IMG/VR virus record: IMGVR_UViG_3300020176_000010
Coordinates: 1 to 64,000 of that record
Source of the DNA: a virus
DNA length: 64,000 bases
Strand: one strand, 5' to 3'
This document shows positions 10,901-25,712 of the stretch, one piece after another; position 1 is the stretch's first letter; every line of letters begins with the position of its first letter. The notes beneath the pieces were generated by a model. It was not told the DNA's origin and did not search any database. It saw only the letters and a list, made by a program, of their open reading frames with translations. A program made the translations under genes and the position numbers.

Positions 10901-13900
10901 ATCCACCCGCAGCGGCGTCGACCCAAACGGCGAGCGCTGGGAAACCGTGATGCCAGCCAACTATGGCTACATCCGCGGATCTGCCATGGCGGCCGACGGC
11001 GACAAGGTGGACATCTACCTGCCGAACAACGCTCGCTCCGGTTCTCCAGCGTGGATCATCGACCAGTACAACGACGACGGCTCGTTCGACGAGACCAAGA
11101 CCGTGCTGGGCGTGCGCACCGCAGAAGAGGCGACGCGCATCTACGACGCAGGCTACTCGGATGGCTCTGGCCCGCGCCGCCGCGGCGCCGTGACCGAGAT
11201 GTCCATCGAAGACTTCAAGGCCTGGGCCAACTCCGCAGCCGCCAAGAAGCCAGCCGGCGCGCCGCGCGTGATGGATGAGCAGGCGGCGATCGCCGCCAGC
11301 GCCGCAGCCGACGGCCTGCGGGTCACCGGAACCATGCCCGTTCGCATCGATGGCGAGACCAGGAACATCGGCCTCGTGTCCGAGTTGCCTGATGCCGAGT
11401 CGATCGCGCGCGGCGGCCGCGCCACGCGCATCTCCAAGAAGCAGGGCGAGGTGCTGCAGGCAATCGCTCAGGCGTTTGGCAAGAGGGTTCAGTTCTTCTA
11501 CGAGCCAAAGAACGTCGGCGCCGGCGATGGGTTCATCATGAACAACGACCGGTCGACGATCTACCTGAACACCGTGTCAGGCCGCTCGCCGATCGTCGTG
11601 TTCGGCCACGAGCTGATGCACCAGCTCAAGCGCGACAACCCAGAAGCGCACGCAGCCATTGCGGCAGTCGTTGAGCGCCGCGTGAACCGCCAGGCCGCCG
11701 ACAACCTGTACGGCAAGGAGCTTGGCTACTCCGGCGACTCGGTGATGGAGGAGCTTATCTCCGACATCGGCGGTGACCTCATGTCTGACAAGACCTTCTG
11801 GTCCGACGTCATGGATGAGGTGCACGCGCAAAACGACACCAAGGCTGCGCGCAAGATCATCGTCAAGCTGGCTGATTTCCTGATGCGCTCGATCGAAGCG
11901 CTGTCGCGGAACCTGCGCAGCTACGCCGACACCGGCGCAGGCTCGAAGCTGGTCGACGACATGACCGAGATTCGAGCCGCCTTCCGAGGCGCCCTGGCTG
12001 ACTACATCAAGCAGCAAGGCATCAGCAAGCCAGCCATGCAGGCTGAGATCCTGAAGGCCGGACAGGATGCAAAACGGTCTGCCGGCCGCACCACAAAGAG
12101 CGACGTTCAGGGCGACATGTTCCAAGGCGACATGATTGGCCCGGACGAGAAGGTTGCAACAGGACGCGTCATTGACAGCAAGGGAGGCACCGAGGAAGGC
12201 GGGAATGTCGACAGCGCTGGGCGCCAGATTGCCCCAACACGCCAGGCTCTCGAGAACTTCTGGAAGTGGTTTGGCGATAGCGATGCGGTTGACGACAACG
12301 GCCGCCCATCCTTGTACCACCACACCACGCGCAACGACTTCGATAAGTTCGAGGCGAATCGCGTTACAAAGAACAGCGGCACATTCGACGAATGGGAGAC
12401 ATCACGCGCCGCGATCTTCTTCACGGAATCGCTGGAAGATAGCCAGGCCTACGGTAAGGCCGGAAAGGGCTTCGAGCCTGGCGCCAACGTCATGCCGGTG
12501 TACCTGAAGGCTGAGAACATTCTTGACATGACGAGCGGCTATCTGCCCAGCTACGGAAGAGATGCAGCCCGCATCGAAGAGGCCGGACTGAACCCGCGCT
12601 ACATGGATCGGTTCGACTGGTCCAAGTTCGACGACGAAGATGGCAAGGAGATGGTCGATGCACTCAAGCGCGCCGGCTATGACGCGGTCAAATTCTGGGA
12701 TCAGAATCCAGACACGCAAGAAGACTTCCAGGCGCTCGCCGTCTTCTCGCCGGAGCAGATCAAATCAGCTCTCGGCAACCGCGGAACATTTGACAGCGCG
12801 GATGCCAACATCACACGCAGCGCAAGCCGCGATGACGCCCTGACCGTCGAGGCCTACCACTTCAGCCGCCAGCCGCGCAACGTACTCAGCACCGGCGCGT
12901 ACGGCTCGGGCCTGCAGGGCAGCGACCGTGACGCCATCATGGACCACCCAGACAAGCGCCTGCGCAAGCGCCTCTACTTCTATGTGAACAAGGGTACTGG
13001 CGTGCGCCCAGAGTCTGGCGTTGGCGGCATTGCCCATAAGGCCATCCTGTCGAACATCTACGACAGCGACGCTGACGCAAAGCGCCTCAAGCAGGGCCGC
13101 GACAAGCGCGCCTTCGAGAGCGCCGTGCTGGATGCTGGCTATGACGGCTACCTGGCCCGCCTGGACGGCACCCAGCCCGGGCAGGTCATCCTGCTTGGTC
13201 AGAAGACCGTGGAGCCAGAGGTGCTGGGCCAGCGCACGCAGATCCCAGAAGCCAAGGCTGTGCCGCAGCCAGCGCAGCGGAGCATGGATGCTGGCGATCG
13301 GATCATGGCCAACAGCAGCCTGCCGGCTGGCCGCATGGACCTCGGCATGTGGTCTCGCGTGCTGCGCGGGATGATGCCTGACGTGCATGCGCAGCTGGAC
13401 GCGGCAGGCGTGTTTGATGGCGACGGCTCGTTCTACAAGGATGAGTTGGTTGCCCGTGCGCGCAAGTCGCAACCCATCGCCGCCCAGAGTAAGGGGCGCG
13501 AGGCCAAGATCGAGAAGCTGGCGCCCGTGGCGCAGCGCGGCCAGCGCGTGGTTGGCCAGCGCGTCACACTGTCTGCCGATGAGAAGCAGGCCATCGAGTT
13601 CTCCGCAGAAACGACCGGCGTCTCCGCCAAGGAAATCACGCGCGTCGTTCGAGAGCACAAGCTGGCGCATCCAACATCGCAAGGCTGGGCCCCGCTCAAT
13701 TTCGCCAAGACAAAGATCGAGAAGGGAAAGATCGCCTACGAATATGACAAGGTGCCATACAGCTTCAATGCTGACGCGGATGGCCGCGCGCTGAAGCCTG
13801 GCACTACGGAGTACGACCGCCGTGTTGGCGCCGTTGCGCGTCGCATGACCGACGAGGTGCGTCGTGTGCACCAGCGCGCAGCAGATGGCGACAAGAATGC

Positions 13901-16900
13901 AGAGAACATCCTGGCCCAGGCCGGGTGGTACAAGTCGATGCGCGCCCGCCTTCGCCATGAGTTCGGCGGCCTGGGCGACCTGTTCGCAGACCTGCTTGGC
14001 GCTACCAGCCCCAACACTCCAGTGCGCGACAACTGGACCAACGCCGTGGACTCTCTGCGCCGCGCCACGCGTGGCGACTTCGACCAGCTGATCCCTGCAT
14101 GGGAGGCGTGGGCGGATGACATCGATGCGCGCGAGACCGAGCTGCGAGCCTGGTTCAATGGCCAAATGGCAGACGGCAAGAGCAAGAAGGCCATCAAGGA
14201 ATCCGCTGAGTACAAGGAAAAGCTGGACAGCCTGATCGCTGCGCGCGAGCTGCCTGACGCCCTGCTGCCTACCAAGGAGACCGGCAAGAAGTACGGCTTC
14301 AACGGCCGCAATGTGGCGCGCGCCATGGTCGATCTGTGGCGTGTCGTGCGCGATGCGGACCCCGACGTCAAGCGCGGCGGCACGGCGCCAAAGGCAGTGA
14401 ACTTCAGCGGGAACCTGATCGGCTTCCGTGAGCGCGCAACCATCGACGTGTGGGCGGCCCGCATGCTGCAACGCCTGTCTGGCGGATTGCGCGTGCCGAG
14501 CATGGCTGAGGTCGGCGTGAGTGGCGAGATGCGCGCAGATGGCGCCACCACACTGCAGTTCGGGTTTGGCCAGGACGTCTTCTCGGATGCGGTGAAGCGC
14601 ATCCGCAAGGATCCAGAACTCAAGACCAACGACACGCTGGCCAAGATCAACGATGACGACCTGCAGGCTGTGGTCTGGTTCGTTGAGAAGGAGATCTGGA
14701 CAGCCAACAACTGGACCAGCGCAGCTGGCGAGGGCGGGTCGTTCGAGCTCGAGGCCAGCCTGTCTGGCTCCGCGGAACAGGAGCGCATCAAAGAGCTGCG
14801 CCGCATCATCGACTCCAGCAAGTCCAAGCCGGACGCAAAGGCCAAGGCCCGCGCGGAGCTGGCCAAGCTGGAGCGCACCGTGGACCGCTTTGTGGGCGGC
14901 CTGTCTACGCAGATGTCGATGGACACCCAGGGCATCGACTTTGTGCCACAGGACTCCGACATGGCTCGCCTGTCCAACGAGGTGACCACCGCGATCTACG
15001 AAGACGATAGCGCCACCGCCGTGCTGGCATCGAAGGCCCTGGCCACCGAGGGCCGGTACGGAGGCATCGAGCGCTCACTCGACCTCGAGGTTGTTGCGCG
15101 TGAAGGCTACAAGCCGGCGGCGCTGTGGAAGAAGATGCTCGAGATCGCCGATCGCGCCAAACAGGACAGCACGTTCCTGTCCCGCGTGCTGCGCGACGAC
15201 GAGGAGGTTGATATGCTGCGCCACCGCCCTGGCGTGGAGATCTATTTCCGTGAGGCCGCATCGCGCGAAAAGCTCGAGCGGGTGCTTGGAGAGTTGGCCA
15301 ACGAGGGGGTCGAGTTCCTGACTGTCATCGTTGATGGTCGCCGCATGTCTGACGCCGTCAAGGGCCAGATGCCACCGGCCGTCGGTGTGCGCATGCAGTA
15401 CGTTCCAGAGTTCGATCAGCGGTATGGTTTCGACGACCTTAGCTCCTTGGATGATGCTGCTCTTGCAGCTAAAATCCAGGACAAGGCCGCGGAAATGACC
15501 GCACTTGCAGACCGCGTCGCAAAGGCGGTCGGGAATGTCTCATTTGCCAGCCAGTTCTGGTACGAGACTGATGTGGCGTTTGGCCACGAATACCAGGAGA
15601 AAATTGATGCCATCACAACTGGAAGTGCTGAAGGATCAGCTGCGCAGGCTGGAGGCCGAGAATGGGCCGGACGGACCGCTCGCGCGGGGCTTGAAAGCGC
15701 GAATCGCCAAGCTCGAGAAACCGCACGCACCCAACCCGGTGGAGATGTACTCGATCGGAACCAGGCCGGCACCAATGACGCAGGACGGCCAGGCGCTACC
15801 GGAAGCGCCAACTCGGGATCAGTTCAAGACGCAGGCGGAGTTCGAAGAAGCGCTCGGCGGATGGCGCTCGATGGTGGGCAGGATCAGAGGATTGAAGGCC
15901 GGGAAGAAGACGGAAGCCTGACCGGCCTGCCGCGCGACTTCAACATCGCCGGCCAGCAGATCCGCGCAAGCCACTGGGCGCCCGCCGAGGCTGTCGCGCG
16001 CAAGTACATGGCTGATGCTGGGCTGGAGTACACACCACCAGCCCGCTACGCCAAGGTCGATCCAGAGCGCGCAAAGCGCATCGCGGCCGAGTACGACAAG
16101 CTCAAGCACGACCCACAAAATCCGCAGGTCAAGGCGGCCTATGAAGCCCTAGCCCGCGAGACGATCGCACAGTACAGCGCCGTCATCGATAGCGGCCTGC
16201 AGGTCGAGTTCATCGACTTCGCCAAGCAGGGTGACCCATACGCAGCAAGCCCGCGCCTCATGACGGAGGATGTGCGCAACAACAACCACATGTGGCTGTT
16301 CAGCACACGCGACGGGTTTGGCTCTGACGCCGAGTTTGACCCGATCGACAACCCGCTGCTCGCCGAGACGGAGTTCACCATCAGTGGCCAGAAGGCCTTG
16401 GTGAATGACTTGTTCCGCGTGGTGCACGACTACTTTGGCCACGTCAAGGAGGGCGTCGGCTTCCGCGCAGACGGCGAAGAGAACACCTGGCGCGCGCACA
16501 GCTCGATGTTCTCACCACTGGCGCAGCGCGCACTCACCACCGAGACGCGGGGGCAGAATTCCGCAGTGAACTTTTCCTCGAAACCTCTGTTCCAAGTGAT
16601 TGGTGAACACAGGGCGAGGATGCTTTATGACGAAGGATATGCGCGGAGGGTTGCGCGAGACGAAGCCGGTGACGTACGCCGGCGTGACGTACAGGACGTC
16701 AAGGGATTGTCCGGTGTATCCGGTCTGGAACGGGATGATGTATCGGTGCTTCAACCCCAAGGCTCCGAGCTTCAAGCACTACGGCGCCCGGGGAATAACG
16801 GTGGATCCACTGCTGCAGACTCTGCAGGGGTTCCTGGACGTGATGGGGCTTCCGCCGACACCGGCACACCAGATCGACAGGATCAACAACGACGGCAACT

Positions 16901-17303
16901 ACGAGCCGGGCAATCTGCGCTGGGCAACGCCAACGGAGAACCTTCGCAACAAGCGAACCTCTCGGATGTTGACGCACAACGGCAGGACGCAGGCGATGTC
17001 GGCATGGGCCGAGGAGCTAGGGCTGTCGACGCAGGCACTCAAGGCTCGGCTCGACAGGTACAACTGGACAGTCGATCAGGCACTCGAGACGCCTCTGGGG
17101 ACGGGCGGGAGCCGCTTTGGAAAACGATCACCGTAGGTGAGCACAACAGAACCGCCAGCTCCGGCGACACGCACTACGCCGACCAGAAGGTTGGCCTGCT
17201 GCCACAGTGGGTCAGCGAAGAAGGTCGTCGCGATTCAACGCCGGCCGAATACAATCAGCGCATCGAGGCGATGAAAGATCTGATCGCCTGCCTCCGCAAC
17301 TAA
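7944..17303 (+). CDS. Giant polyvalent virion protein 1 (glucosaminidase, InPase-like, HExxH metallopeptidase, ART-PolyVal, further unnamed domains)
   Basis: 3119 aa; GQWGLETGWG..NNLGNIK..GYAEDPDY (GH73-like, ~8090-8500); ENPQGSTRSGVD..YGYI..DGDKVDIY (~10800-11250); HELMH (11607-11621); FWKWFGDS..YHHT..EQIKSALGNRGTFD (~12250-12830). Confidence 0.85.
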   Translation: MAQQDFSDIASLIPDAQPSAATKPAAQQQASEFSDISALLPDAAPAQSGVDGFVAQYRPLAERVAKQAGVAPEAILGQWGLETGWGKSVIPGTNNLGNIKDFSGGGVLATDNMTGSRDAYRKYGSAEDFGDDFAGLLARRYKSAIGSGQNAERYFTALKTSGYAEDPDYVKKGVAATQMAARAMGSAAPASLQAKSEYGSIQPQPPRSTFDAIKDMGSALWQGAKSTARSVGATGSAYIGNLSDVELAAEAQKSDVANNPAALQSLQGEIARRKAANPNAGILDAAADVIGAALQNKEGMAQMVANQAPNSAVALGGAWAGGKAGAAVGSAFGPAGTVVGGVLGGLAGMFLGNAAMETGGKAIEKAEGGFTPQERTEAIEEGAVKAGVITAVDAATFKLGGAIASSLNKGAIRAGARAEAKVLADAGINIADGAEIVAALAKNPALRKTAIEAGEKAAKAASSTASRIGTAGTLLTTETLGEGVGEYGGELAATGQADPYDAALEAISSFSQSAPQAAMSMVQSASNRLDTKAIVAAAPEMAPVIEKAATPNSPLSRAAMAANTPEVVAQRQAERSAQAGALGDASAAEAAPAAAKDAGVRLAELEAIAKGTPSQQVTDESGNPLTIPGEPGRFFTQEEKAEYDQLVQMRDATEKVRNADKPQVDEISTRVEEISASIRENGTLQAMRDAGENTNALLKDLAIAKSKSTAAAQREQALARVEFALGMSDQLMPARQPREAADPIQAQLSNPQISEVDREELSINYFASKNQALPEKTRQRALERAQEIVGRYAAPSTGRAEGDLSPAVLADIAPQPGSPEEALRQAERFDSGAYQFKAEGFPDEAAELELQADAARKEAAVRREAIELANRVEQVPAPAVATPAGPGPAALRKRKATLRQLVDNGLGRVERRNDGFFLVSQNGRQEFKLDGMADAQLARTAIADSIRDGAAKANTNPTEGQKQAGNYKVGEIKFDGLTLAVENPQGSTRSGVDPNGERWETVMPANYGYIRGSAMAADGDKVDIYLPNNARSGSPAWIIDQYNDDGSFDETKTVLGVRTAEEATRIYDAGYSDGSGPRRRGAVTEMSIEDFKAWANSAAAKKPAGAPRVMDEQAAIAASAAADGLRVTGTMPVRIDGETRNIGLVSELPDAESIARGGRATRISKKQGEVLQAIAQAFGKRVQFFYEPKNVGAGDGFIMNNDRSTIYLNTVSGRSPIVVFGHELMHQLKRDNPEAHAAIAAVVERRVNRQAADNLYGKELGYSGDSVMEELISDIGGDLMSDKTFWSDVMDEVHAQNDTKAARKIIVKLADFLMRSIEALSRNLRSYADTGAGSKLVDDMTEIRAAFRGALADYIKQQGISKPAMQAEILKAGQDAKRSAGRTTKSDVQGDMFQGDMIGPDEKVATGRVIDSKGGTEEGGNVDSAGRQIAPTRQALENFWKWFGDSDAVDDNGRPSLYHHTTRNDFDKFEANRVTKNSGTFDEWETSRAAIFFTESLEDSQAYGKAGKGFEPGANVMPVYLKAENILDMTSGYLPSYGRDAARIEEAGLNPRYMDRFDWSKFDDEDGKEMVDALKRAGYDAVKFWDQNPDTQEDFQALAVFSPEQIKSALGNRGTFDSADANITRSASRDDALTVEAYHFSRQPRNVLSTGAYGSGLQGSDRDAIMDHPDKRLRKRLYFYVNKGTGVRPESGVGGIAHKAILSNIYDSDADAKRLKQGRDKRAFESAVLDAGYDGYLARLDGTQPGQVILLGQKTVEPEVLGQRTQIPEAKAVPQPAQRSMDAGDRIMANSSLPAGRMDLGMWSRVLRGMMPDVHAQLDAAGVFDGDGSFYKDELVARARKSQPIAAQSKGREAKIEKLAPVAQRGQRVVGQRVTLSADEKQAIEFSAETTGVSAKEITRVVREHKLAHPTSQGWAPLNFAKTKIEKGKIAYEYDKVPYSFNADADGRALKPGTTEYDRRVGAVARRMTDEVRRVHQRAADGDKNAENILAQAGWYKSMRARLRHEFGGLGDLFADLLGATSPNTPVRDNWTNAVDSLRRATRGDFDQLIPAWEAWADDIDARETELRAWFNGQMADGKSKKAIKESAEYKEKLDSLIAARELPDALLPTKETGKKYGFNGRNVARAMVDLWRVVRDADPDVKRGGTAPKAVNFSGNLIGFRERATIDVWAARMLQRLSGGLRVPSMAEVGVSGEMRADGATTLQFGFGQDVFSDAVKRIRKDPELKTNDTLAKINDDDLQAVVWFVEKEIWTANNWTSAAGEGGSFELEASLSGSAEQERIKELRRIIDSSKSKPDAKAKARAELAKLERTVDRFVGGLSTQMSMDTQGIDFVPQDSDMARLSNEVTTAIYEDDSATAVLASKALATEGRYGGIERSLDLEVVAREGYKPAALWKKMLEIADRAKQDSTFLSRVLRDDEEVDMLRHRPGVEIYFREAASREKLERVLGELANEGVEFLTVIVDGRRMSDAVKGQMPPAVGVRMQYVPEFDQRYGFDDLSSLDDAALAAKIQDKAAEMTALADRVAKAVGNVSFASQFWYETDVAFGHEYQEKIDAITTGSAEGSAAQAGGREWAGRTARAGLESANRQARETARTQPGGDVLDRNQAGTNDAGRPGATGSANSGSVQDAGGVRRSARRMALDGGQDQRIEGREEDGSLTGLPRDFNIAGQQIRASHWAPAEAVARKYMADAGLEYTPPARYAKVDPERAKRIAAEYDKLKHDPQNPQVKAAYEALARETIAQYSAVIDSGLQVEFIDFAKQGDPYAASPRLMTEDVRNNNHMWLFSTRDGFGSDAEFDPIDNPLLAETEFTISGQKALVNDLFRVVHDYFGHVKEGVGFRADGEENTWRAHSSMFSPLAQRALTTETRGQNSAVNFSSKPLFQVIGEHRARMLYDEGYARRVARDEAGDVRRRDVQDVKGLSGVSGLERDDVSVLQPQGSELQALRRPGNNGGSTAADSAGVPGRDGASADTGTPDRQDQQRRQLRAGQSALGNANGEPSQQANLSDVDAQRQDAGDVGMGRGARAVDAGTQGSARQVQLDSRSGTRDASGDGREPLWKTITVGEHNRTASSGDTHYADQKVGLLPQWVSEEGRRDSTPAEYNQRIEAMKDLIACLRN
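15447..15475 (+). promoter_or_regulatory. Sigma70-like promoter internal to giant gene
   Basis: TTGGAT-N17-TAAAAT about 130 nt upstream of nested ORF 15607. Confidence 0.55.
15607..15921 (+). CDS. Nested overprinted protein (+1 frame within giant gene), 104 aa
   Basis: AGGAGA RBS 6 nt before ATG; protein-like MPSQLEVLKDQLRRLEAENG...; host-frame translation over this span is low-complexity G/A/R-rich. Confidence 0.65.
   Translation: MPSQLEVLKDQLRRLEAENGPDGPLARGLKARIAKLEKPHAPNPVEMYSIGTRPAPMTQDGQALPEAPTRDQFKTQAEFEEALGGWRSMVGRIRGLKAGKKTEA
16627..17136 (+). CDS. HNH homing endonuclease overprinted in +1 frame within giant gene
   Basis: GAGGA RBS; W..MMYRC.NP....FKHYGARGITV...IDRINNDGNYEPGNLRWAT...N.RNKR motif. 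Confidence 0.85.
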   Translation: MTKDMRGGLRETKPVTYAGVTYRTSRDCPVYPVWNGMMYRCFNPKAPSFKHYGARGITVDPLLQTLQGFLDVMGLPPTPAHQIDRINNDGNYEPGNLRWATPTENLRNKRTSRMLTHNGRTQAMSAWAEELGLSTQALKARLDRYNWTVDQALETPLGTGGSRFGKRSP

Positions 17304-17315
17304 GGACCGAAGTAC

Positions 17316-20300
17316 ATGGCCCAGATTACGAACTGCCTGAAGCTCATCTCCCGCATGCCTGAGAGCGACCAGGACGCACTGGTTTCTCGACTTGACGAGC
17401 TGCAGGCTCTCGGCGTTCCTGCGCAGCGCGCACAGGTGCAGGCGGCCATCGACCTGATGTCGCGCCTGGAGCGCGAGGCAAACCCGCAGGGTATTCAACG
17501 CAGCGCAGCGCGCGACGTCACCGAGACGCCGGAGTTCCGCAGCTGGTTTGGCGATAGCAAGGTGGTGGATGCCGATGGCAAGCCGCTTGTCGTGTACCAC
17601 GCAACCACATCGAACATTAAAAAGTTCTCGACGAAGAAGTCAGCAGGCGGCTTCTACTTCACGCCAAACGCCGAAGATGCATACCCAAGCAAGCGCGGCG
17701 AAATGACGTCCGAGCGCGGTCTCAATGTGATGCCAGCCTACCTGGCCATCAACAGCCCACTGCGGACCAGCGACCCAGCCGATTGGCACAGGCTTGACGC
17801 AGACCGACGCTCCAGCATCGAGGATCGCGGATTTGACGGCGTCATTGTTGAAAACGAAGACGGGTCTGTGCGCGAGTACATCGCCTTCGAGCCCAGCCAG
17901 ATCAAGTCCGCCATCGGAAACCGGGGCACCTTCGACCCGGCCGACCCCGACATCACCCGCAGCGCATCCCGCCTGCCCGCCGGTGTTGAAATCATCGAGG
18001 TCGATGATGGCTTCGACGCCATGCAAGACGGCAAGCGCATCGGCCGCCTGCGCGACAACCTGCCACGCGGCGCCGCTGAGCGGCTGGACGAAAACGCCAG
18101 CGTCGACATCGTCAAGGTCGAGAACGAGTTCAAGGGCCAAGGTGTTGGCGCGGCCCTGTACGACGCCTTCTACGAGAAGCACGGCGGCCGCATCGCGCCA
18201 TCCGGCAAGACCTCGCCAGAGGCCTGGGCCCTGTGGAAGCGCAAGTTCCCTCAGAAGGTGCAGGAGTTCGTGCAGGCCGAAGCTCAGCGCATCCGCGACG
18301 GCGCAGACCCATTCATGGTCATGCGCAACATCACCGACAAGGACGTAGCGCGCGACGTGGCCATTGCGGCGGGCGACAACGTTATCCGCAGCGTGGCGCG
18401 GAATGTGGTCGATAGCGCCGAGTTCAAGCGCTGGTTCGGCGACAGTAAGGTGGCGGATGCCGAGGGTAAGCCGCTGGTGGTGTATCACGGCAGCCGATAC
18501 AACGCCGACATCAAGAGGTTCAGCGCAGCAAAGTCCGAGCAATCGGCGGCGGAGCGCGGAATCTACTTTACCGACAGCGCAGATCATGCAGATCAATACG
18601 CGAGCCAGTGGGGAGACGCCAGCCCAGAAGACGGCGGCTCAATTTACCCCGTCTATCTGAAGATTGAAAACCCCTACGTTTCCAATGCGTGGGAGTGGAA
18701 CATGGGCACAGACATCACGCCAGCCCAAGCTCGCAAACGAGGGCATGATGGCTACGTGATTCAAAACCACGAGGGCGGCACAACCTACATCGCCTTCCGC
18801 CCCGAGCAGATCAAGAGCGCCATCGGCAACCGCGGCACGTTCGACCCATCCGACACCGACATCACGCGCAGCGCCGCGCGCCCCGAATTCTTCAGCCAGC
18901 TGCAGCGCTCCATCGAACAAGTGCCAGACCGCCTGGCCACCATGTCTGCGCCACAGTGGAAGCTCTGGCTTGACGCCAATGCAGCCAAGCTGGGCGTAAA
19001 GAAGGACGAGATTGAGTGGTCAACAATCAAGGATTACTTGACACTTCGTGGCAAGGACAAGGTCACGCGCGACGAGTTGGCGGCATACCTGTCTGACAGC
19101 GGTGTGCGGGTGCGGGAGGTTGTTCTTGGTGGCGGCGGCACTGAAAAGGTAACCTTGGTTCGAGACTCAACCAGGCAGGACGCATGGGGAGAAGTCGTCG
19201 TCTATCGAAGCTCCGACGGGGCTTTCGTTGTCGAGAATGGAATTGGTGGGCAGAGCTGGTCGGTTCAGGATGCCGATTCATACGACAGCGACTACTCAGA
19301 AGACGATGGAAGCTACGCAGGAAGCTTCAGCTCACGCGAAGCTGTAGAGTCTTTCATCAATGGCCAGACGCAGGCCGCCGACCCATATTACTCCGGCGTT
19401 GGATCGAACCCAGCAACCAAGTATGGCGCCTATACCGTGCCCGGCGGCCCGCTCTCGCGCGATACTGAGATCCTGACCCGTGATGGCTGGATGCGGATGG
19501 ATGAGGTTCAGATCGGCGACGAGGTCATGACGCGACGAGATGAAGACGGCGGCCTGGAGTGGCAGCCAGTTGAAGCGCTGCCGACCGTTTACGCAGAAAA
19601 GCTATACCACTTCAAGAATCAATCGATCAACATGCGCGTCACGCCATGCCACAAGATGGTAGTCAAGCGTCGGCGCAGATCAACGGGCGAGATCGTTCGC
19701 GTCACGGCAGAGCAGCTTTGGGGCATGTCGGAGATGGTAGCCCCACTCACGGGGTCATGGGGCGGCGGTGAATTCTCTGACCTGTTTGATCAAGATCCTG
19801 GAGATGTCGCTGAGCTGCTTGGGTGGTTTATTGCAGAAGGCCACTACAAGACGGAGGCGGATGGCAAGAAGTCAACCATCGGTATTGCTCAGTGCCGATC
19901 AGCAAACAGCGACAAGTGCGCCCGTATCGAGTCCCTATTGGGGAGGATGGGTATCGCCTGGAATTACTCTGGCGGTCAGTATTGGCTGGGTGTCAAGAAG
20001 ATGTCTGCCGATCTGGTGCAGCTTCTGCATGCACAAGGGAAATCTGCTGAAAAGTATGTGCCTGGCTTCATGTTCAATGCGCCAGCCAGCGTCATTCAGC
20101 GCATGCTTGATGGCCTCTTGCTTGGCGATGGCTGCCTTGTAAAGCAGAATGGCCGAAAGCCTCGGTGGACATACCACACGAAATCCAAGCAGCTGGCAGA
20201 TGATGTCCAGGTGCTTGCTCTTCTCGTTGGTAAACGTGGATCCGTGTCTCGGCGCAAGACGGGTCTTTACACGGTCACCATCAATGATAAGCAGTGGGCG

Positions 20301-20879
20301 AGCATCGATGATGCGAAGCACGCGGTCGTCGATTACAACGACATCGCGTACTGCGTCACTGTGAAGAATCACTCGATCTACGTTCGTACCAATGGCGTCG
20401 CAGCGTTCACTGGAAACTCCAACTACCGCGAGGTGCTGATCACGTTGCCTCCGATTGGCCGGGTGAGATACACCGAGGAAAATGTCGTCGCCATCGATGA
20501 CGCGGACGACCCAAATCGTTCCCGCTACTTCTGGCGCTTCAAGGTTCCAGGCAATGAGCTACAGATCTCCAAGCAGGTTTACCGCACCCAGGAGGAGGCG
20601 AAGGCCTACATCCTGAGCGAGAAGCAGCCAGAGCCTCCGGCCGACAAGAACTACCGCTCCAGCCACTGGGATGCGCTGAATGTTATCGCGCATATCAGGG
20701 TGGATGATAGGGTGGACTCCGATGGAAAAAAAGTGCTCTTTGTGAATGAGCTGCAAAGTGATTTTGGCCAGGACTATCGCAAGGCAAAAGAAGCAATCGA
20801 GAGCGCTGTTGACACCGATTTTATGGGCATCGTCGAGCGCATGAAAAAAGCAGGCGTACTGGAGGTTGTTTGTGATTAA
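17316..20879 (+). CDS. Polyvalent virion protein 2 (ART-PolyVal, GNAT, ART-PolyVal, N-terminal part of an LPD-type domain; contains intein)
   Basis: 1187 aa; AAGGA RBS; two F..WFGDSKV.D..GKPLVVYH...QIKSAIGNRGTFD units; FKGQGVGAALY; YTVPGG/SNYREVLITLP...SSHW...ELQSD. Confidence 0.85.
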   Translation: MAQITNCLKLISRMPESDQDALVSRLDELQALGVPAQRAQVQAAIDLMSRLEREANPQGIQRSAARDVTETPEFRSWFGDSKVVDADGKPLVVYHATTSNIKKFSTKKSAGGFYFTPNAEDAYPSKRGEMTSERGLNVMPAYLAINSPLRTSDPADWHRLDADRRSSIEDRGFDGVIVENEDGSVREYIAFEPSQIKSAIGNRGTFDPADPDITRSASRLPAGVEIIEVDDGFDAMQDGKRIGRLRDNLPRGAAERLDENASVDIVKVENEFKGQGVGAALYDAFYEKHGGRIAPSGKTSPEAWALWKRKFPQKVQEFVQAEAQRIRDGADPFMVMRNITDKDVARDVAIAAGDNVIRSVARNVVDSAEFKRWFGDSKVADAEGKPLVVYHGSRYNADIKRFSAAKSEQSAAERGIYFTDSADHADQYASQWGDASPEDGGSIYPVYLKIENPYVSNAWEWNMGTDITPAQARKRGHDGYVIQNHEGGTTYIAFRPEQIKSAIGNRGTFDPSDTDITRSAARPEFFSQLQRSIEQVPDRLATMSAPQWKLWLDANAAKLGVKKDEIEWSTIKDYLTLRGKDKVTRDELAAYLSDSGVRVREVVLGGGGTEKVTLVRDSTRQDAWGEVVVYRSSDGAFVVENGIGGQSWSVQDADSYDSDYSEDDGSYAGSFSSREAVESFINGQTQAADPYYSGVGSNPATKYGAYTVPGGPLSRDTEILTRDGWMRMDEVQIGDEVMTRRDEDGGLEWQPVEALPTVYAEKLYHFKNQSINMRVTPCHKMVVKRRRRSTGEIVRVTAEQLWGMSEMVAPLTGSWGGGEFSDLFDQDPGDVAELLGWFIAEGHYKTEADGKKSTIGIAQCRSANSDKCARIESLLGRMGIAWNYSGGQYWLGVKKMSADLVQLLHAQGKSAEKYVPGFMFNAPASVIQRMLDGLLLGDGCLVKQNGRKPRWTYHTKSKQLADDVQVLALLVGKRGSVSRRKTGLYTVTINDKQWASIDDAKHAVVDYNDIAYCVTVKNHSIYVRTNGVAAFTGNSNYREVLITLPPIGRVRYTEENVVAIDDADDPNRSRYFWRFKVPGNELQISKQVYRTQEEAKAYILSEKQPEPPADKNYRSSHWDALNVIAHIRVDDRVDSDGKKVLFVNELQSDFGQDYRKAKEAIESAVDTDFMGIVERMKKAGVLEVVCD
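19449..20417 (+). mobile_element. Intein (class 3-like, Pro1) with LAGLIDADG endonuclease, 323 aa
   Basis: Block A PLSRDTEILTRDGW; block B VTPCHKM; LLGWFIAEG and MLDGLLLGDG; block F AYCVTV; ends FTGN|S; removal restores YTVPGGSNYRE. Confidence 0.85.
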
Positions 20880-21507
20880 GACCTTCTATGTTTACAGGCA
20901 CTACCACACCGACAGCGGACTCCCATTTTATGTTGGCAAGGGGACCAGACTATCCAAGAGTGACGGCTATCGCAGGGCTTTTGATGTGCATCGAAGGAAG
21001 GCCTCATGGAAAAGCGCGTCCGCAAAGCACGGCCTAGTGGTAGAGGTTGTGGCCGAGTTCTTTGCTGAGGCGGATGCTCTTGCGTTTGAGGCCGATTTGA
21101 TAGCTATGCATGGTCGCCGGGATCTTTGTGCTGGCACGCTCATAAATCACACCGATGGGGGTGAGGGGTGCTCTGGGTTTAAGCACAAGCCGGAGTCAAT
21201 CGAGCGCATTCGGATGGCAAGCCAAGGGCGCCGCCTTGGCGATGCGTCACGCCGCAGAATCTCCGATGCGCTAACCGGTAGTCGGCACCCTGGCTACGGC
21301 CGCCGGCAGTCGGCAGAAACGTCCGAGCGAAAAAGGGTGGCGATGCTAGGTAAAAACTTAAATGGTCGCTCTGTGCTGGATCGCTCAACAGGCGCTGTGT
21401 ACAAATCAGTTCTTGCGGCATCAAGAGCAACAGGAATACCGGCACGAACACTCGCCAACTATCTGCATGGCGAGAGGAAGAATAGAACAGAAATGGAGTT
21501 CGCATAA
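20872..21507 (+). CDS. GIY-YIG-like homing endonuclease with NUMOD3-type repeats
   Basis: GGAGG RBS plus GTG overlapping upstream stop; FYVYRH...PFYVGKG...E..LI...INHTDGGEG; H.PESIERI, S.ETSERK. Confidence 0.8.
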   Translation: MIKTFYVYRHYHTDSGLPFYVGKGTRLSKSDGYRRAFDVHRRKASWKSASAKHGLVVEVVAEFFAEADALAFEADLIAMHGRRDLCAGTLINHTDGGEGCSGFKHKPESIERIRMASQGRRLGDASRRRISDALTGSRHPGYGRRQSAETSERKRVAMLGKNLNGRSVLDRSTGAVYKSVLAASRATGIPARTLANYLHGERKNRTEMEFA

Positions 21508-24500
21508 TGGCCTGCCGATACACCTACCAGGGCAAGACCTACGAGGCCCACGAATTCGACGACGTGCTGCGCGCTATGGCGCCAATGGATGCGGAGAAGT
21601 TCATGCCTACCGTGAAGAGCATTCCATCAGCGCCACTGATCTCCGACACCAAGGCCTGGGCCGGCCTCGCCCTGAAGCGCGCCATCATGATGGCCGTGGA
21701 GGAGGGGCACGACAAGATCGCTTTGATCACCGGGCAGCAGGCCGCGGATCTCTATGACCTGAGCAAGCAGATCAGCAGGGTCGAGTTCTCGGACGCCAGC
21801 AGCGGAGGCGTCAGTGATGCCAACCTTGGCGCGCCAGATGGATCTGGGAATCTGTCGGCATTCGACCTTGACGGCAAGCGTGTCATCGACACCTATGTCA
21901 GCGCCGACAAGATCGAGGACTATGTTGGCAAGGAGGTTGCGCGCAAACTACTCGAATCCGAGCCAAGGGCCGTCCGCGCCGCCGGAGTTGGCCTGCGTCG
22001 CCGCTCCCTTGATGGCCTAGACCTCAAGGTCGGTGGCGAAGGCATGCGCGCCTTCTACGACCAGATCATCCCCCAGGTGGCGCGCGACGTGCTGAAGAGG
22101 CTGGGCGGCGGGCAACTGGCCACAGCGAAAATCACAACCGACAAGAATGGCTGGCACATCACGCCACCCAGCCAGACGGCCAGCGGAAAGTGGATGGTCA
22201 AGAGCAGCGACTACAACTCCGTCGGCCTCAAGTTCGACACAGAGGCCGAGGCGCGCGCCGCCCTGGCCGAGAAGCAGGAAACGAGCGAGCAGGTTTCGCT
22301 CGACATCACGGACTCCATGCGCGAGAAGGTGGCCTCCGGCGTGCCGCTGTTCAGCCGCCGCCGTGGCTGGGATGCATTCCCTGACGCGATCATCGCGACA
22401 CCGCCGTCCACACAATCAAGCGACCCATCGTACGCAGCAGCCAAGGGCGGCGACATGAAGGCCGCGCTCGAGCTCGTGGACCGCGTGATGCCCGATGACA
22501 TCGAGCAGCGCGTGCGCGCAACCATTGGTGATGCCAAGCCTATCGTTGCCGCCGTGCACGCCGAAGAGGCCGCCGGCCGCAACAAGATCCCCTTGGCCAC
22601 CGCCTTCGTGCTCGGAGAGCGCATGGGTCTGCAGGTCGACGAGAAGCTGGTTCAGGCATCACGCGCCAAGCGCACCGGCTCCGACGGCATGGCCCGCCTC
22701 GGCGTGCAGCCAGAGTTTGCCGGCGAAGTGGAGCGCGACGCAGACTACCTGCTGGTCGATGACACCCTGGCCCAGGGCGGCACGCTGGCGCAGCTCAAGA
22801 CCCACATCGAGGACAACGGCGGCCGCGTCGTGGGGGTATTCGCGCTGAGCGGCAAGCAATACTCTGCTAAGATTTCCCTTGATAATGCAACACTTAATGA
22901 TGTCAGGGCGAAGTATGGATCGATCGAAGACTGGTGGAAAGGCGAGCTCGGCTACGGCTTCGAAGGCCTCACACAGTCCGAGGCCCGCTACATGCTCAAC
23001 TCCGGGCTTTCGCCTGAAGCCCTGCGAGATCGAGTCGCTGCAGCACGACAAGCGGCTGGCGCTGGAGATGGCGCGCAGCGTTCGGAAAGCGTTGGCGATC
23101 AAGAAGTAGTACGCAGCATGCCGCGCGTTCCTGGTTTGAACGCCGGGCCTGTCGAGAGCACGACAGGAGACTATGGCCGCGAGTACACGCCGCAGCAGTT
23201 GGCCATGTTCAAGAACACCGGCCGCACCACGCAGAAGCCGTCCCTCGTTGAGCGCCTAAAAGAGGCTCGCAAAGACTTGGGCAAGAAGATGGCCCAAGGC
23301 ATCGTCGATCAATTCCGCCCGCTGCGCGATCTCGGCGGCAACGCCTACACGCTGGCCCGCTTGTCAAAGGGCGCGGCCGGCGCGTTCGAGGCGCTGCTTG
23401 GCCACGGCAAACTGAAGATCGTCGATGGAGCCTACGACGCAGACACCAGCGGCGGCTTCATTGACACCGTCGGCAAACCCCTTGGCCGCGAGATCGAAGA
23501 CTTCATGTGGTGGGTAGCCGCCAACCGCGCGGACAGCCTTTCTCTGCAGGACCGCGAGAACCTCTTCACTGACGACGACATTGCCGCGGGCAAATCGCTG
23601 GCAGACGGAGACCTCGAGTTCGACTACCTCCTGCAGAGCGGCGCAACAACGCGCGACCGCAAGGCCGCCTACGAGGACTCGCTGAAGAAGTTCAACGCGT
23701 TTGGCAAGAATGTGCTGGACATCGCCGAGGAGAGCGGACTGATCGATGGAGAGAGCCGCAAGCTGTGGGAGAGTGAGTTCTACGTGCCGTTCTACCGCGT
23801 GAGCGAAGAGGATGGCTCATTCATTGGCGCAAAGATCAAGGGCGGCCTGGCTCGCCAGCGCGCGTTCCACGAGCTCAAAGGCGGAAGCCAGAAGCTGAAC
23901 AGCGACCTGCTGGCGAACACCATGCGCAACTGGGCGCACCTGATCGACGCGTCTGCGAAGAACCGCGCAGCCAAGGCGACGCTTGAGTCTGCGCAGAATG
24001 TCGGCATCGCGCTTGAGGCTGACGCTGAGACCGTACGCCAGCTCGGAAAGTCGATGGGCGGCAAGGGTGGCACCGTTTGGTTCATGGACGGCGGCCAGCA
24101 GCGCCACTTCCTGGTTGGCGACCCATACGTGCTCGAGGCAATCAATAGCCTGGAGTACGCCGGCCTGCGCGGCCCACTGATGGACGCCCTTTCCACAATG
24201 AAGCACTGGCTGACCGTCGGCGTCACGGCGTCGCCAGCGTTCAAGATCCGCAACTTGATCCGCGACTCGATTCAGGCCATCAGCTTGAGCGGCCTGAGCT
24301 ACAACCCGGTGACCAACCTGGTTGAGGGCTACAAGGCCACAGATCGAGCAAGCCAGGACTACGTCTCTACGCTGGCATCTGGCGGCCTGATTCGCTTTGG
24401 CTCCATGCTGGAAGACAGCGCATCAGAGCGCGTACGGAGGCTTGTGAAGAAGGGCGTCGATGGCAACACCATCCTGGACAGCGAGAGCAAGGTGCAGGCC

Positions 24501-25712
24501 TTCTATGGGAAGTACCTTGAGCCAGCGATTGAGGCCTACCAAGAGATCGGCAACCGCGGGGAGGAGATCAACCGCGCCTCGCTGTACAAGCAGCTGCGCG
24601 CAAAGGGCGTAAGTCATGCGGAGGCATCCCTGATGGCGCGCGACCTTATGGACTTCAGCATGCAGGGAACGTGGACCAGCATTCGGTTCCTGACCCAGGT
24701 TGTGCCGTTCATGAACGCCCGCCTGCAGGGTATGTACAAGCTGGGCCGTGGAGCCATGGAGGATCCTCGTCGATTCGCCCTGGTTACCGGCGCCGTGGCA
24801 CTCATGTCTATCTCGCTGCTGGCGGCCTACGGCGATGACGACGACTGGAAAAAGCGCGAGGACTGGGATCGCGATGGATTCTGGTGGTTCAAGTTCGGCG
24901 GCACAGCATTCCGCATTCCGAAGCCATTCGAAATTGGCGCCATCGGCAGCCTTGCCGAGCGTGGAGTTGAGCTCTTCACCAACGACGAGTTCACCGCAAA
25001 GCGCTTCGGCAGCCGGGTGCTCCACCTGCTTGGCGACAACCTGGCCATGAACCCAATTCCGCAAGCTGTGAAGCCAATGCTGGACATCTACGCCAACAAG
25101 GACAGCTTCTCCGGCAGGCCGATCGAGTCGATGGGCATGGAGCGCCTGCAGTCCGAGTACCGCTACAACGTGCACACAAGCATGATCGCCAGGGGCGCCA
25201 GCTCCGCGCTGAATGCGGCAACGCGCACCGTTGGCGCGGAGGCCCTCAGCCCGGTGCAGATCGACTCACTGATCCGCGGATACTTTGGATGGCTTGGAAC
25301 CTTTGTGGTTGCAGGAGCGGATATGGCAGTGCGCCCACTCACTGACGAGCCAGCACGCCCACAGGCCGATTACCTGAAGGTGGTGTCACAGGGTTTCTTG
25401 AAGACCTTGCCAGAGCCTGGCTCAAAGTACGTGAGCGCCATGTACGACCAGGCAAAGGTAATCGAGCAGGCCTACGCCACGCACCGGCAGATGGTCAAAG
25501 AGGGCAAGGTCGACGAGGCGCGCGAGTTCGCGGCCGAGAACAAAGATCTGCTGGAGCGCCACCGCAGGATCGAGGGCGTCAAAGAGGCCCAGTCCAAGAT
25601 CAACAAGCGCGTGCGCGAGATCGAGCTCAGCGACATGGACCCAGCTCGCAAGGCCGAGGAGATCCAAAAGCTGCGCGATCAGTCGGGCAAGATCGCTCGG
25701 AAGGTTTACTGA
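21507..25712 (+). CDS. Polyvalent virion protein 3 (C-terminal part of split LPD-type domain, PRTase-like domain, LPD38)
   Basis: 1401 aa; P.AP...AW..LALKRAI..A.E.G.D...GEGMRAFYD; YLLVDDTLAQGGTL (PRPP-binding loop); RIPKPFEIG (LPD38 hallmark). Confidence 0.85.
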   Translation: MACRYTYQGKTYEAHEFDDVLRAMAPMDAEKFMPTVKSIPSAPLISDTKAWAGLALKRAIMMAVEEGHDKIALITGQQAADLYDLSKQISRVEFSDASSGGVSDANLGAPDGSGNLSAFDLDGKRVIDTYVSADKIEDYVGKEVARKLLESEPRAVRAAGVGLRRRSLDGLDLKVGGEGMRAFYDQIIPQVARDVLKRLGGGQLATAKITTDKNGWHITPPSQTASGKWMVKSSDYNSVGLKFDTEAEARAALAEKQETSEQVSLDITDSMREKVASGVPLFSRRRGWDAFPDAIIATPPSTQSSDPSYAAAKGGDMKAALELVDRVMPDDIEQRVRATIGDAKPIVAAVHAEEAAGRNKIPLATAFVLGERMGLQVDEKLVQASRAKRTGSDGMARLGVQPEFAGEVERDADYLLVDDTLAQGGTLAQLKTHIEDNGGRVVGVFALSGKQYSAKISLDNATLNDVRAKYGSIEDWWKGELGYGFEGLTQSEARYMLNSGLSPEALRDRVAAARQAAGAGDGAQRSESVGDQEVVRSMPRVPGLNAGPVESTTGDYGREYTPQQLAMFKNTGRTTQKPSLVERLKEARKDLGKKMAQGIVDQFRPLRDLGGNAYTLARLSKGAAGAFEALLGHGKLKIVDGAYDADTSGGFIDTVGKPLGREIEDFMWWVAANRADSLSLQDRENLFTDDDIAAGKSLADGDLEFDYLLQSGATTRDRKAAYEDSLKKFNAFGKNVLDIAEESGLIDGESRKLWESEFYVPFYRVSEEDGSFIGAKIKGGLARQRAFHELKGGSQKLNSDLLANTMRNWAHLIDASAKNRAAKATLESAQNVGIALEADAETVRQLGKSMGGKGGTVWFMDGGQQRHFLVGDPYVLEAINSLEYAGLRGPLMDALSTMKHWLTVGVTASPAFKIRNLIRDSIQAISLSGLSYNPVTNLVEGYKATDRASQDYVSTLASGGLIRFGSMLEDSASERVRRLVKKGVDGNTILDSESKVQAFYGKYLEPAIEAYQEIGNRGEEINRASLYKQLRAKGVSHAEASLMARDLMDFSMQGTWTSIRFLTQVVPFMNARLQGMYKLGRGAMEDPRRFALVTGAVALMSISLLAAYGDDDDWKKREDWDRDGFWWFKFGGTAFRIPKPFEIGAIGSLAERGVELFTNDEFTAKRFGSRVLHLLGDNLAMNPIPQAVKPMLDIYANKDSFSGRPIESMGMERLQSEYRYNVHTSMIARGASSALNAATRTVGAEALSPVQIDSLIRGYFGWLGTFVVAGADMAVRPLTDEPARPQADYLKVVSQGFLKTLPEPGSKYVSAMYDQAKVIEQAYATHRQMVKEGKVDEAREFAAENKDLLERHRRIEGVKEAQSKINKRVREIELSDMDPARKAEEIQKLRDQSGKIARKVY
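22885..23109 (+). CDS. Possible nested overprinted peptide (+1 frame) at end of PRTase domain; start uncertain
   Basis: Ends LKPCEIESLQHDKRLALEMARSVRKALAIKK; preceded by local AT-rich patch with TGcTAAGAT (22865-22873). Confidence 0.35.
   Translation: MQHLMMSGRSMDRSKTGGKASSATASKASHSPRPATCSTPGFRLKPCEIESLQHDKRLALEMARSVRKALAIKK

Follow-up and report, generated by a model that had tools for sequence, protein, structure and literature searches.

Free-standing endonuclease genes which split another gene are known in phages: mobE in nrdA of Aeh1, mobA in gene 39/60 of T4 and seg in gene 43 of phage 25 are the cases described in one account (PMC2988022). For Aeh1, Crona et al. 2010 (PMC3045599) report that the C- and N-terminal tails of the split NrdA arose with the mobE insertion and are essential for activity. 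In the MobA elements, as presented by Manning and Atkins 2022 (bioRxiv 10.1101/2022.08.31.505936), conserved tails (CTE and NTE) are retained after loss of the endonuclease, which in some cases is replaced by GIY-YIG or VSR genes. Here we describe a comparable arrangement in viral DNA, in a window of 64,000 nucleotides (IMG/VR virus record IMGVR_UViG_3300020176_000010, positions 1 to 64,000). In this window, three giant genes for polyvalent proteins (p0, p1 and p3) follow each other in a phage structural region. A predicted homing endonuclease gene is found between p1 and p3, which encode the two halves of one domain. Both new protein ends carry additional sequence: p1 ends in a short tail and p3 starts with a short head. 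We refer to tail and head as tags.

As in Aeh1 nrdA/mobE, a free-standing endonuclease splits a gene which is continuous in relatives, and new C- and N-terminal tails are present. The Aeh1 endonuclease is of the HNH type and its host is a metabolic enzyme, while in our case a putative GIY-YIG gene is found in a putative GNAT-like domain of a virion polyvalent protein. The tails of Aeh1 act as protein-interaction domains, as established at the bench (PMC3045599); for the tags described here we infer such a function. Unlike Aeh1, the tags form a large conserved family (191 protein clusters), each has a single cysteine (Cys) in otherwise Cys-free giant proteins, and they are also found at other junctions which have no endonuclease.

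The MobA cassette, described for the topoisomerase gene 39/60 of T4-like phages, also splits its host protein at one place and adds conserved tails; its endonuclease is progressively lost or replaced by other genes while split and tails are kept, and it is discordant with the host phylogeny. On the other hand, our locus has no translational bypass cassette, the host gene and the endonuclease family are different, and the tags occur in more than one host gene. The "fractured genes" reported in 2009, mainly in phage metagenomes (PMC2677866), have the same order: half-gene and tag, endonuclease, tag and half-gene. Their tags are described as intein halves which ligate the exteins and are then removed; those found here have 69 residues and no Hint signature, and are presumably retained. 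The Seg-type GIY-YIG genes of T4-like phages, according to the account in PMC2988022, are intergenic, overlap the upstream stop, which suggests translational coupling, and are present in some genomes and absent in others. All this is also seen in our case, but Seg genes are mostly located between whole genes, while this gap lies inside one structural domain.

A first-pass annotation, made from this DNA sequence alone, had presented the arrangement as a third alternative to introns and inteins. Since the tails of Aeh1 NrdA and MobA have been published, the principle is already known. What is new is the host (a GNAT-like virion polyvalent protein, as far as its fold can be predicted), the family to which the endonuclease belongs, how large and how conserved the tag family is, the use of the tags at other junctions and a single-Cys pattern which points to a covalent lock. 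The full text of the survey of polyvalent proteins by Iyer et al. 2017 (PMC5512222) does not mention cysteine, disulfide, split, intein, homing or GIY-YIG. Supplements aside, no report of the tags or of the Cys pattern was found in literature searches on polyvalent proteins and disulfides, or on ejection proteins and intermolecular disulfides.

We hold with moderate confidence that the tail and the head are a docking pair which serves a mobile endonuclease cassette. If the tags dock, they would be the largest natural family so far of proteins split by an endonuclease and rejoined by tails, known at the bench from one enzyme, and a small natural connector pair (some 30 residues per side) that could perhaps be moved between proteins and locked covalently. 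One Cys per tag, with almost none in more than 100,000 other residues, provides a sharp and cheap test. The case bears on the packaging and cohesion of giant ejected proteins, and on how selfish nucleases invade coding sequences without killing them.

Conservation of the tail and the head

The head motif M-x-C-x-Y-T-(Y/F)...G-K-T-Y...E-F is found at the start of 61 of the 120 nearest p3 N-terminal homologues, although identity over the remainder of these proteins is only about 40%. Upstream of the heads, the tail consensus is ...AI.KAVD.DF.GIV.RMK.AGVLEV.CD, directly followed by the stop codon. A tail of this type precedes the head in all 25 junction lineages with a visible upstream gene, which come from IMG/VR, from JGI/ENA metagenomes and from one metagenome-assembled genome (MAG). 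A search for the head in GTDB species genomes gave one MAG contig only.

A profile built from 19 tails was searched against 1.84 billion protein representatives. It matches 191 protein clusters at E<=0.001, 98 of them at E<=1e-10. In the best 150 of the 191 matches, every match ends within one residue of the C-terminus, far beyond what chance would give. Conversely, the head motif was never seen internally in 120 proteins and 127 loci, and sensitive local searches with hidden Markov models (HMM) for an internal tail or head in continuous relatives gave nothing above 6 bits. The first-pass annotation was thus right in considering tail and head as extra sequence, which does not align with normal residues of continuous homologues. 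The possibility that they are ordinary loop residues was rejected: the continuous proteins only give noise under 6 bits in these searches. By eye, some continuous loops hold a stretch which looks like a hairpin plus helix; its similarity to the head is undetectable. Tail and head fused in a single chain (a Rosetta-stone test) were not found among the 120 proteins, the 127 loci and the best 150 of the 191 tail matches.

Selection was analyzed in 18 loci, with all pairs pooled. The proportion of synonymous differences (pS) is 0.67–0.81 in every part, and 0.76–0.81 in the tags: synonymous sites are saturated. For non-synonymous differences (pN), the tail has a proportion of 0.28 and the head one of 0.23, versus 0.44 and 0.42 in the flanking half-domains. 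Amino acid identity is 60% in the tail and 67% in the head, versus 41% in both flanks. Selection acts on the protein sequence of the tags. Synonymous saturation together with low pN excludes a recent DNA transfer as the cause of their likeness and conservation, and also a purely nucleic-acid constraint.

It could be argued that DNA or RNA constraints (the homing site, immunity to self-cleavage, Shine-Dalgarno sites, translational coupling) account for the conservation and that the peptides are functionless read-through. In fact, GGAGG in the LEV codons of the tail and GGAG in the LEF codons of the endonuclease serve the next start, and the stop/start overlaps are conserved. Nevertheless, this explanation is very improbable. 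Non-synonymous change in the tags is about half of that in the flanks at saturated synonymous sites, and about 30 residues are conserved on each side, far past a Shine-Dalgarno site. The cassette is also found in an AT-rich phage (L084), and the tags keep their residues both there and in the window, which has 63% GC.

Cysteines and proposed docking

The distribution of Cys is a characteristic feature of these proteins. In p0, a single Cys is found in 3119 residues, at position 3116. In p1, Cys is found at positions 7 and 1186, and five more within an intein. The only Cys of p3 is residue 3, in the head. Among the best 150 of the 191 tail matches, none lacks a Cys in its three final residues; 117 end in CD and 19 in a bare C. 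The 70 tail-bearing proteins with at least 800 amino acids (the longest has 4812) contain only 30 inner Cys in 134,162 residues, and 61 of them have none; several of the exceptions look like inteins. Similarly, 57 of the 61 head-bearing homologues have exactly one Cys, with nine non-head Cys in the 87,131 residues of all 61.

The first-pass annotation had warned that the tail Cys might not be conserved, or that its codon might be imposed by the overlapping GTG start of the endonuclease. The Cys is conserved, as just described, and its codon is TGC where no GTG overlaps (L060, L097, L100, L076, L124-126), so it is not imposed by the GTG. This explanation of the Cys is ruled out. The two tag Cys would probably form a disulfide; a lock by disulfide or metal had been proposed as possible in the first-pass annotation.

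A second type of Cys-bearing junction is found between p0 and p1 (17260-17360), without an endonuclease. The p0 protein ends in ...AMKDLIACLRN and p1 starts 12 nt later with MAQITNCLKLISRM; this pair of end and start recurs in L079. In 28 of the 33 head-less homologues with a single Cys, it is located within the first 12 residues, in many of them in a second type of head, like that of p1. In two other loci (L018:7001-8056 and L019:7001-7969), the second half-domain is encoded on its own, as a protein with 351 or 322 amino acids, with the head at its N-end and a different Cys-bearing C-terminal tail (...LLDCL and ...RTCLG). Further on in L019 (2.9 kb, with three open reading frames, ORFs, in between) lies a gene whose head is of the second type (MSLTGCLKKAG..., at 10881).

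Co-folding the two peptides was suggested in the first-pass annotation as a check of docking. When the tail alignment is co-folded with the head alignment, the interface score ipSAE is 0.56, 0.58 and 0.64 (median 0.58), versus 0.00 in all three controls. The predicted local distance difference test (pLDDT) of the partner is 80 or more, and 98% or more of the contacts are shared between runs. In the calibration, 58 of 80 solved complexes passed the mark, as did 2 of 110 mismatched pairs; with scores of 0.60 or under, only 7 of the 80 solved complexes passed it, together with both mismatches. The result lends weak support to docking. In an AlphaFold (AF2) model of the head and the second half-domain, strands at residues 4-7 and 10-13 and a helix at 14-23 have a pLDDT of about 80, and residues 31-47, which include the linker, about 50-60; the predicted template modelling score (pTM) is 0.57. 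As modelled, the head would be a separate unit, as expected of a tethered docking unit.

Alternatively, tail and head might act separately and unbound, as signals for packaging into the capsid, for ejection or for maturation by proteolysis, or by attaching their Cys to a third partner (portal, capsid). Both tags are placed at free protein ends, as targeting signals are, the head also opens proteins that follow other genes, and the co-fold score is only a weak pass. LPD38-bearing polyvalent proteins are found in virions and proposed as ejected, according to a preprint on phi24B (10.64898/2026.04.10.717836). We nevertheless consider separate action improbable. The adjacency is strict, with a tail before every head in the 25 junction lineages, and one Cys per tag with almost none elsewhere fits a pair. 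In addition, two halves of one fold have to meet, and the co-fold controls are all at zero.

The split domain, the endonuclease and the movement of the cassette

The first-pass annotation described the split domain as normally continuous. This is the case in 63 of the 120 nearest homologues of the p3 N-terminus, but the other 57 are split at the same point. Of 51 motif pairs in the IMG/VR loci (where one contig accounts for several of the loci), 50 share one open frame, with loops of 87–402 nt between the motifs. The loop which connects E.QSDW.Q.GKKKGF to VP.APFV in continuous forms is variable in sequence and length. A close relative is P0014, a continuous protein of 2417 amino acids without intein: it has 89% identity to p3 residues 39-1401 and 80–85% to parts of p1, with an unrelated 73-residue loop in place of the tail, endonuclease and head of the window. 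Among cultured phages, half-domain queries only find continuous forms (Dolichospermum phage Dfl-JY45; also one uncultured Caudoviricetes record, a spring-water phage with one copy). The Dolichospermum phage has two tandem continuous copies of the domain in one protein of 2387 amino acids (L001, PP438435.1 66403-73566), which has six Cys, unlike most relatives. L087:6913-7166 lacks the tags, has a stop behind ...GREKGFA and carries the half-domains in two frames; a tag-less split, a frameshift or a sequencing error might explain it.

An AF2 model of a continuous domain (L039, 29-row alignment) has a pLDDT of 85 and a pTM of 0.76; the loop is a weak block, with a pLDDT of 66. The top 50 chains found by VIA-align with this model all have GNAT-type or GNAT-like acyltransferase folds (Z 8.9–6.5, root-mean-square deviation 2.7–6.1, 94–128 residues aligned). 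These alignments cover model residues 1-326, so both halves contribute to one fold. With the same model, Foldseek gave no match against PDB at E<=0.001, and no Pfam family was found on the split domain at E<=0.01. We tentatively describe the domain as GNAT-like, with the split in a surface loop inside it.

The endonuclease of the window matches Pfam NUMOD3 (E 1.6e-07, 31.5 bits versus a cut-off of 20.4). Pfam GIY-YIG is only found in relatives, where it is weak and below the cut-off (L113 E 0.0052, L105 E 0.019); the window copy has no match at E<=0.1. In 16 homologous copies, Y8, H10, F19, Y20, G22, R35, W46, E73 and N92 are invariant, among others. By eye, Y8, F19, Y20, G22, R35, E73 and N92 may correspond to the conserved residues of the GIY-YIG catalytic domain, which include Tyr, Tyr, Arg, Glu and Asn. 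The gene encodes a predicted free-standing homing enzyme, with its own start and stop, outside any intron or intein. Among related genomes, it may be present or absent at the same site, and its start overlaps the tail stop in 14 of the 16 copies compared. When the window endonuclease is used as query on IMG/VR, six distant loci appear, which were not used. A contig from an RNA library lies inside the endonuclease gene; DNA carry-over is possible, so nothing is concluded about expression.

An intact endonuclease of the same family is found in 17 of 21 lineages with a junction inside the domain; in the other four it is decayed, replaced or absent. In L100-103, a 63-nt remnant is left, with the first dozen codons and the last few. 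L114 retains a 3' remnant; next to it, on the reverse strand, is an unrelated ORF of some 100 codons, which has a hairpin terminator (L114:2467-3000). A different ORF of 207 codons, without the GIY-YIG motif, fills the gap between tail and head in L128 (2025-3000), and in L097 only 11 nt with a Shine-Dalgarno site are found between them. The gap can carry other cargo (L114, L128), and the junction looks like an insertion hot spot.

The same tag pair joins other genes without an endonuclease, with 0–3 nt between stop and start or with an overlap (L076, L124-126). In such junctions, the domain after the head is ART-PolyVal in L076, SLT_2 in L125 and LPD37 in L126. The tags would therefore be a connector in their own right. 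The first-pass annotation had considered them as part of one element with the endonuclease: the cassette is indeed discordant with the host-gene tree, as described below, but the tags persist without the endonuclease, both in the domain (L097, L100-103, L114, L128) and at the other junctions just mentioned.

We have compared the split and continuous states with a tree of the downstream half (FastTree, 246 columns, head columns excluded). The states require 26 changes, at least 7 of them forced by strongly supported branches; shuffled states have a mean of 40 changes, and none of 500 shuffles is as low as 26. The cassette is discordant with the host-gene tree. Since all heads are homologous and the states are intermixed on this tree, the junction cassette has moved relative to the host gene. 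In the window, the GC content at third codon positions (GC3) is 47% in the tail and 56% in the endonuclease, 73–84% in the flanks and 84% in the head. This points to a later arrival of tail and endonuclease, compared with the head, or to a different source.

The tags might then be general gene-boundary connectors of polyvalent arrays, older than the endonuclease: the GIY-YIG gene would have invaded an existing gap, the usual behaviour of free-standing homing endonucleases, and brought neither the split nor the tags. The tag pairs between other domains (L076, L125, L126) agree with this, and so do the host-like GC3 of the head and the imported look of tail and endonuclease. A few matches of the tail profile come after other sequence, for example at the end of an ART-PolyVal-like stretch, and the p0/p1 boundary is a Cys-bearing junction type without an endonuclease. 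There is also a precedent: the seg gene of phage 25 may have invaded gene 43 when it was already split, as proposed in the account cited above (PMC2988022). We consider this history unlikely. The intact endonuclease is found in most in-domain lineages (17 of 21), with remnants in 2 more. Split and continuous forms are intermixed on the host-gene tree and the nearest relative of the window is continuous, so the junction itself moves, with a homing enzyme as the obvious motor. Because of the remnants and the tree, we slightly favour the capture and carrying of the connector by the endonuclease over the invasion of ready junctions. In any case, an older connector would alter the history and not the docking function.

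The sequence of events in the docking-pair reading would be as follows. A free-standing GIY-YIG gene occupies the gap between the stop and the start of two genes which would jointly encode one GNAT-like domain of a phage polyvalent protein, a virion protein which is probably ejected. The 31-residue tail, which ends in ...GVLEVxCD, and the hairpin-helix head (MACRYTYQGKTYEAHEFDDVLRAM) on its flexible linker would be a cognate connector pair. They would most likely dock and unite the half-domains, and the single Cys of each tag would probably form an intermolecular disulfide once the particle leaves the reducing cell. Tail, endonuclease and head would act as one cassette; through gene conversion driven by the endonuclease, it would take the place of the variable surface loop in the domain. 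Once this has happened, the endonuclease would be dispensable: it may decay or be replaced, and the tags stay. Of all this, the gene anatomy, the strictly terminal tags, protein-level selection, the distribution of Cys, the conflict with the host-gene tree and the decay of the endonuclease are observed; docking, disulfide, homing and the order of events are inferences.

Several points weigh against this reading. The sample of junctions was seeded with heads, and tails were surveyed by profile. No cultured phage with the cassette was found: 50,697 phage records gave no match to the head at E<=1. Since a Shine-Dalgarno site is embedded in the LEV codons of the tail, part of the conservation of this motif may be at the nucleic-acid level. 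By its own calibration the co-fold pass is weak, and it covers an interface score, not the proximity of the two Cys. Assembly happens in the reducing cytoplasm. The 59 head-less homologues are also Cys-poor (20 have no Cys and 33 have one), so that part of the Cys pattern is a general trait of split and continuous polyvalent proteins alike: Cys depletion is general, the special feature is that the sole Cys kept sit in the tags. The tree was built with FastTree from 246 columns. Other gene pairs, free of any endonuclease, are joined by these tags too, and the head of the window has a host-like GC3, so the junction may predate the endonuclease in the window lineage. Finally, the GNAT likeness is middling: Z is under 9, without a Foldseek match or a Pfam family at the thresholds given above.

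A broader role of the tags is possible, but we only put it forward tentatively. Tail and head could be a portable, self-sufficient connector which, together with at least one second, orthogonal Cys type (the p0/p1 junction), would chain the giant, otherwise Cys-free virion proteins head to tail by single disulfides inside the particle, to be released in the reducing cytoplasm of the host. The homing endonuclease would have captured one such connector, and the cassette would cut the gene at a tolerant loop, harmlessly.

Gene layout at the split

The coordinates of all these features are shown in Table 1.

Table 1. Features of the p0-p3 region. Coordinates refer to the 64,000-nt window.
Feature	Coordinates	Strand	Description or evidence
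p0	7944-17303		3119 aa: glucosaminidase, InPase, ART-PolyVal
p1, upstream polyvalent-protein gene	17316..20879	+	1187 aa: two ART-PolyVal domains, intein, first half of split domain, tail
LAGLIDADG intein in split domain, at invariant PGG/NYRE motif	19449..20417	+	Pfam LAGLIDADG_3 E 1.5e-09, Hint_2 weak
First half of putative GNAT-like domain after intein (SNYREVLITLP ... SSHW ... ELQSDFGQDYRK)	20418..20783	+	aligns with continuous homologues; fold model
C-terminal tail, 31 aa, AKEAIESAVDTDFMGIVERMKKAGVLEVVCD, and stop codon	20784..20879	+	alignment, profile search
GGAGG, Shine-Dalgarno-like, inside LEV codons of tail	20861..20865	+	6 nt before endonuclease GTG
Predicted free-standing GIY-YIG/NUMOD3 homing-endonuclease gene, 211 aa	20872..21507	+	NUMOD3 Pfam match; 16-member alignment
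p3, downstream polyvalent-protein gene	21507..25712	+	1401 aa; LPD38 at residues 1111-1282
N-terminal head (predicted beta-hairpin and helix, residues 1-30) and flexible linker (31-38) of p3	21507..21620	+	alignment, AF2
Second half of putative GNAT-like domain (IPSAPL ... LALKR ... GGEGMRAFYD ... PLFS)	21621..22355	+	homologue comparison, fold model

Homology of p1 to continuous relatives stops near ELQSDFGQDYRK (ELQSDF starts at 20748). The 31 residues beyond it (AKEAIESAV...GVLEVVCD, 20784-20876) are followed by TAA at 20877-20879. The endonuclease starts with a GTG at 20872, which overlaps the p1 stop by 8 nt (TGTGATTAA). We have taken this GTG as the start, rather than the TTG at 20866, because GTGATT overlapping the upstream stop recurs in most relatives. 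The endonuclease TAA (21505-21507) overlaps the ATG of p3 at 21507 (TAATG), and a second Shine-Dalgarno-like site, GGAG at 21495, lies inside the LEF codons of the endonuclease, upstream of the p3 start. The p3 N-terminus is the head MACRYTYQGKTYEAHEF / MACRYTYQGKTYEAHEFDDVLRAM, and similarity to continuous relatives is back at IPSAPL (21621). This is the anatomy given in the first-pass annotation, whose coordinates and sequence statements here are all correct: the first part ends at 20879, the domain resumes at IPSAPL in the next gene, and the endonuclease gene lies exactly between the halves, coupled on both sides.

Continuity of the protein might also be restored by splicing, either of a group I intron carrying the endonuclease or by protein trans-splicing with a split intein of very small size. 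Introns or inteins are the usual home of endonucleases found within genes, a Cys is found near each new end, and the fractured genes are described as split inteins with a free-standing endonuclease (PMC2677866). We find splicing hardly credible for this junction. A group I intron is ruled out: there is no Rfam match at E<=1 in 15500-23000, and the three overlapping reading frames leave no bases for a non-coding core. A split intein is ruled out as well: the tags total 69 residues (31 + 38), versus about 130 or more for Hint halves, no Hint signature is present, and the Cys do not lie at extein-intein borders but at the penultimate position (C-end) and the third position (N-end). Besides, selection acts on the tags as protein, and they remain where the endonuclease is gone. 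One salt-marsh metagenome run contains the stretch in full and may be where it came from. Public contigs from four runs show no joint; they are short and do not cover the tail/endonuclease border, so they cannot exclude one.

The absence of intron and intein motifs noted in the first-pass annotation is therefore correct for the junction, but not for the domain as a whole. Pfam Hint and LAGLIDADG are found at p1 residues 714-992; they belong to a separate LAGLIDADG intein (19449-20417), placed in the same domain, 330 nt before the start which that annotation had given. The domain has thus been struck by two different selfish elements. The intein begins with PLSRD and ends in ...FTGN/S, has a GC3 of 64% versus about 74% around it, and is absent from the close relative P0014. 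Finally, the last part of p0 holds an HNH/AP2-like ORF (16600-17136, 178 amino acids) in a different frame, and the p0 frame itself is not interrupted there.

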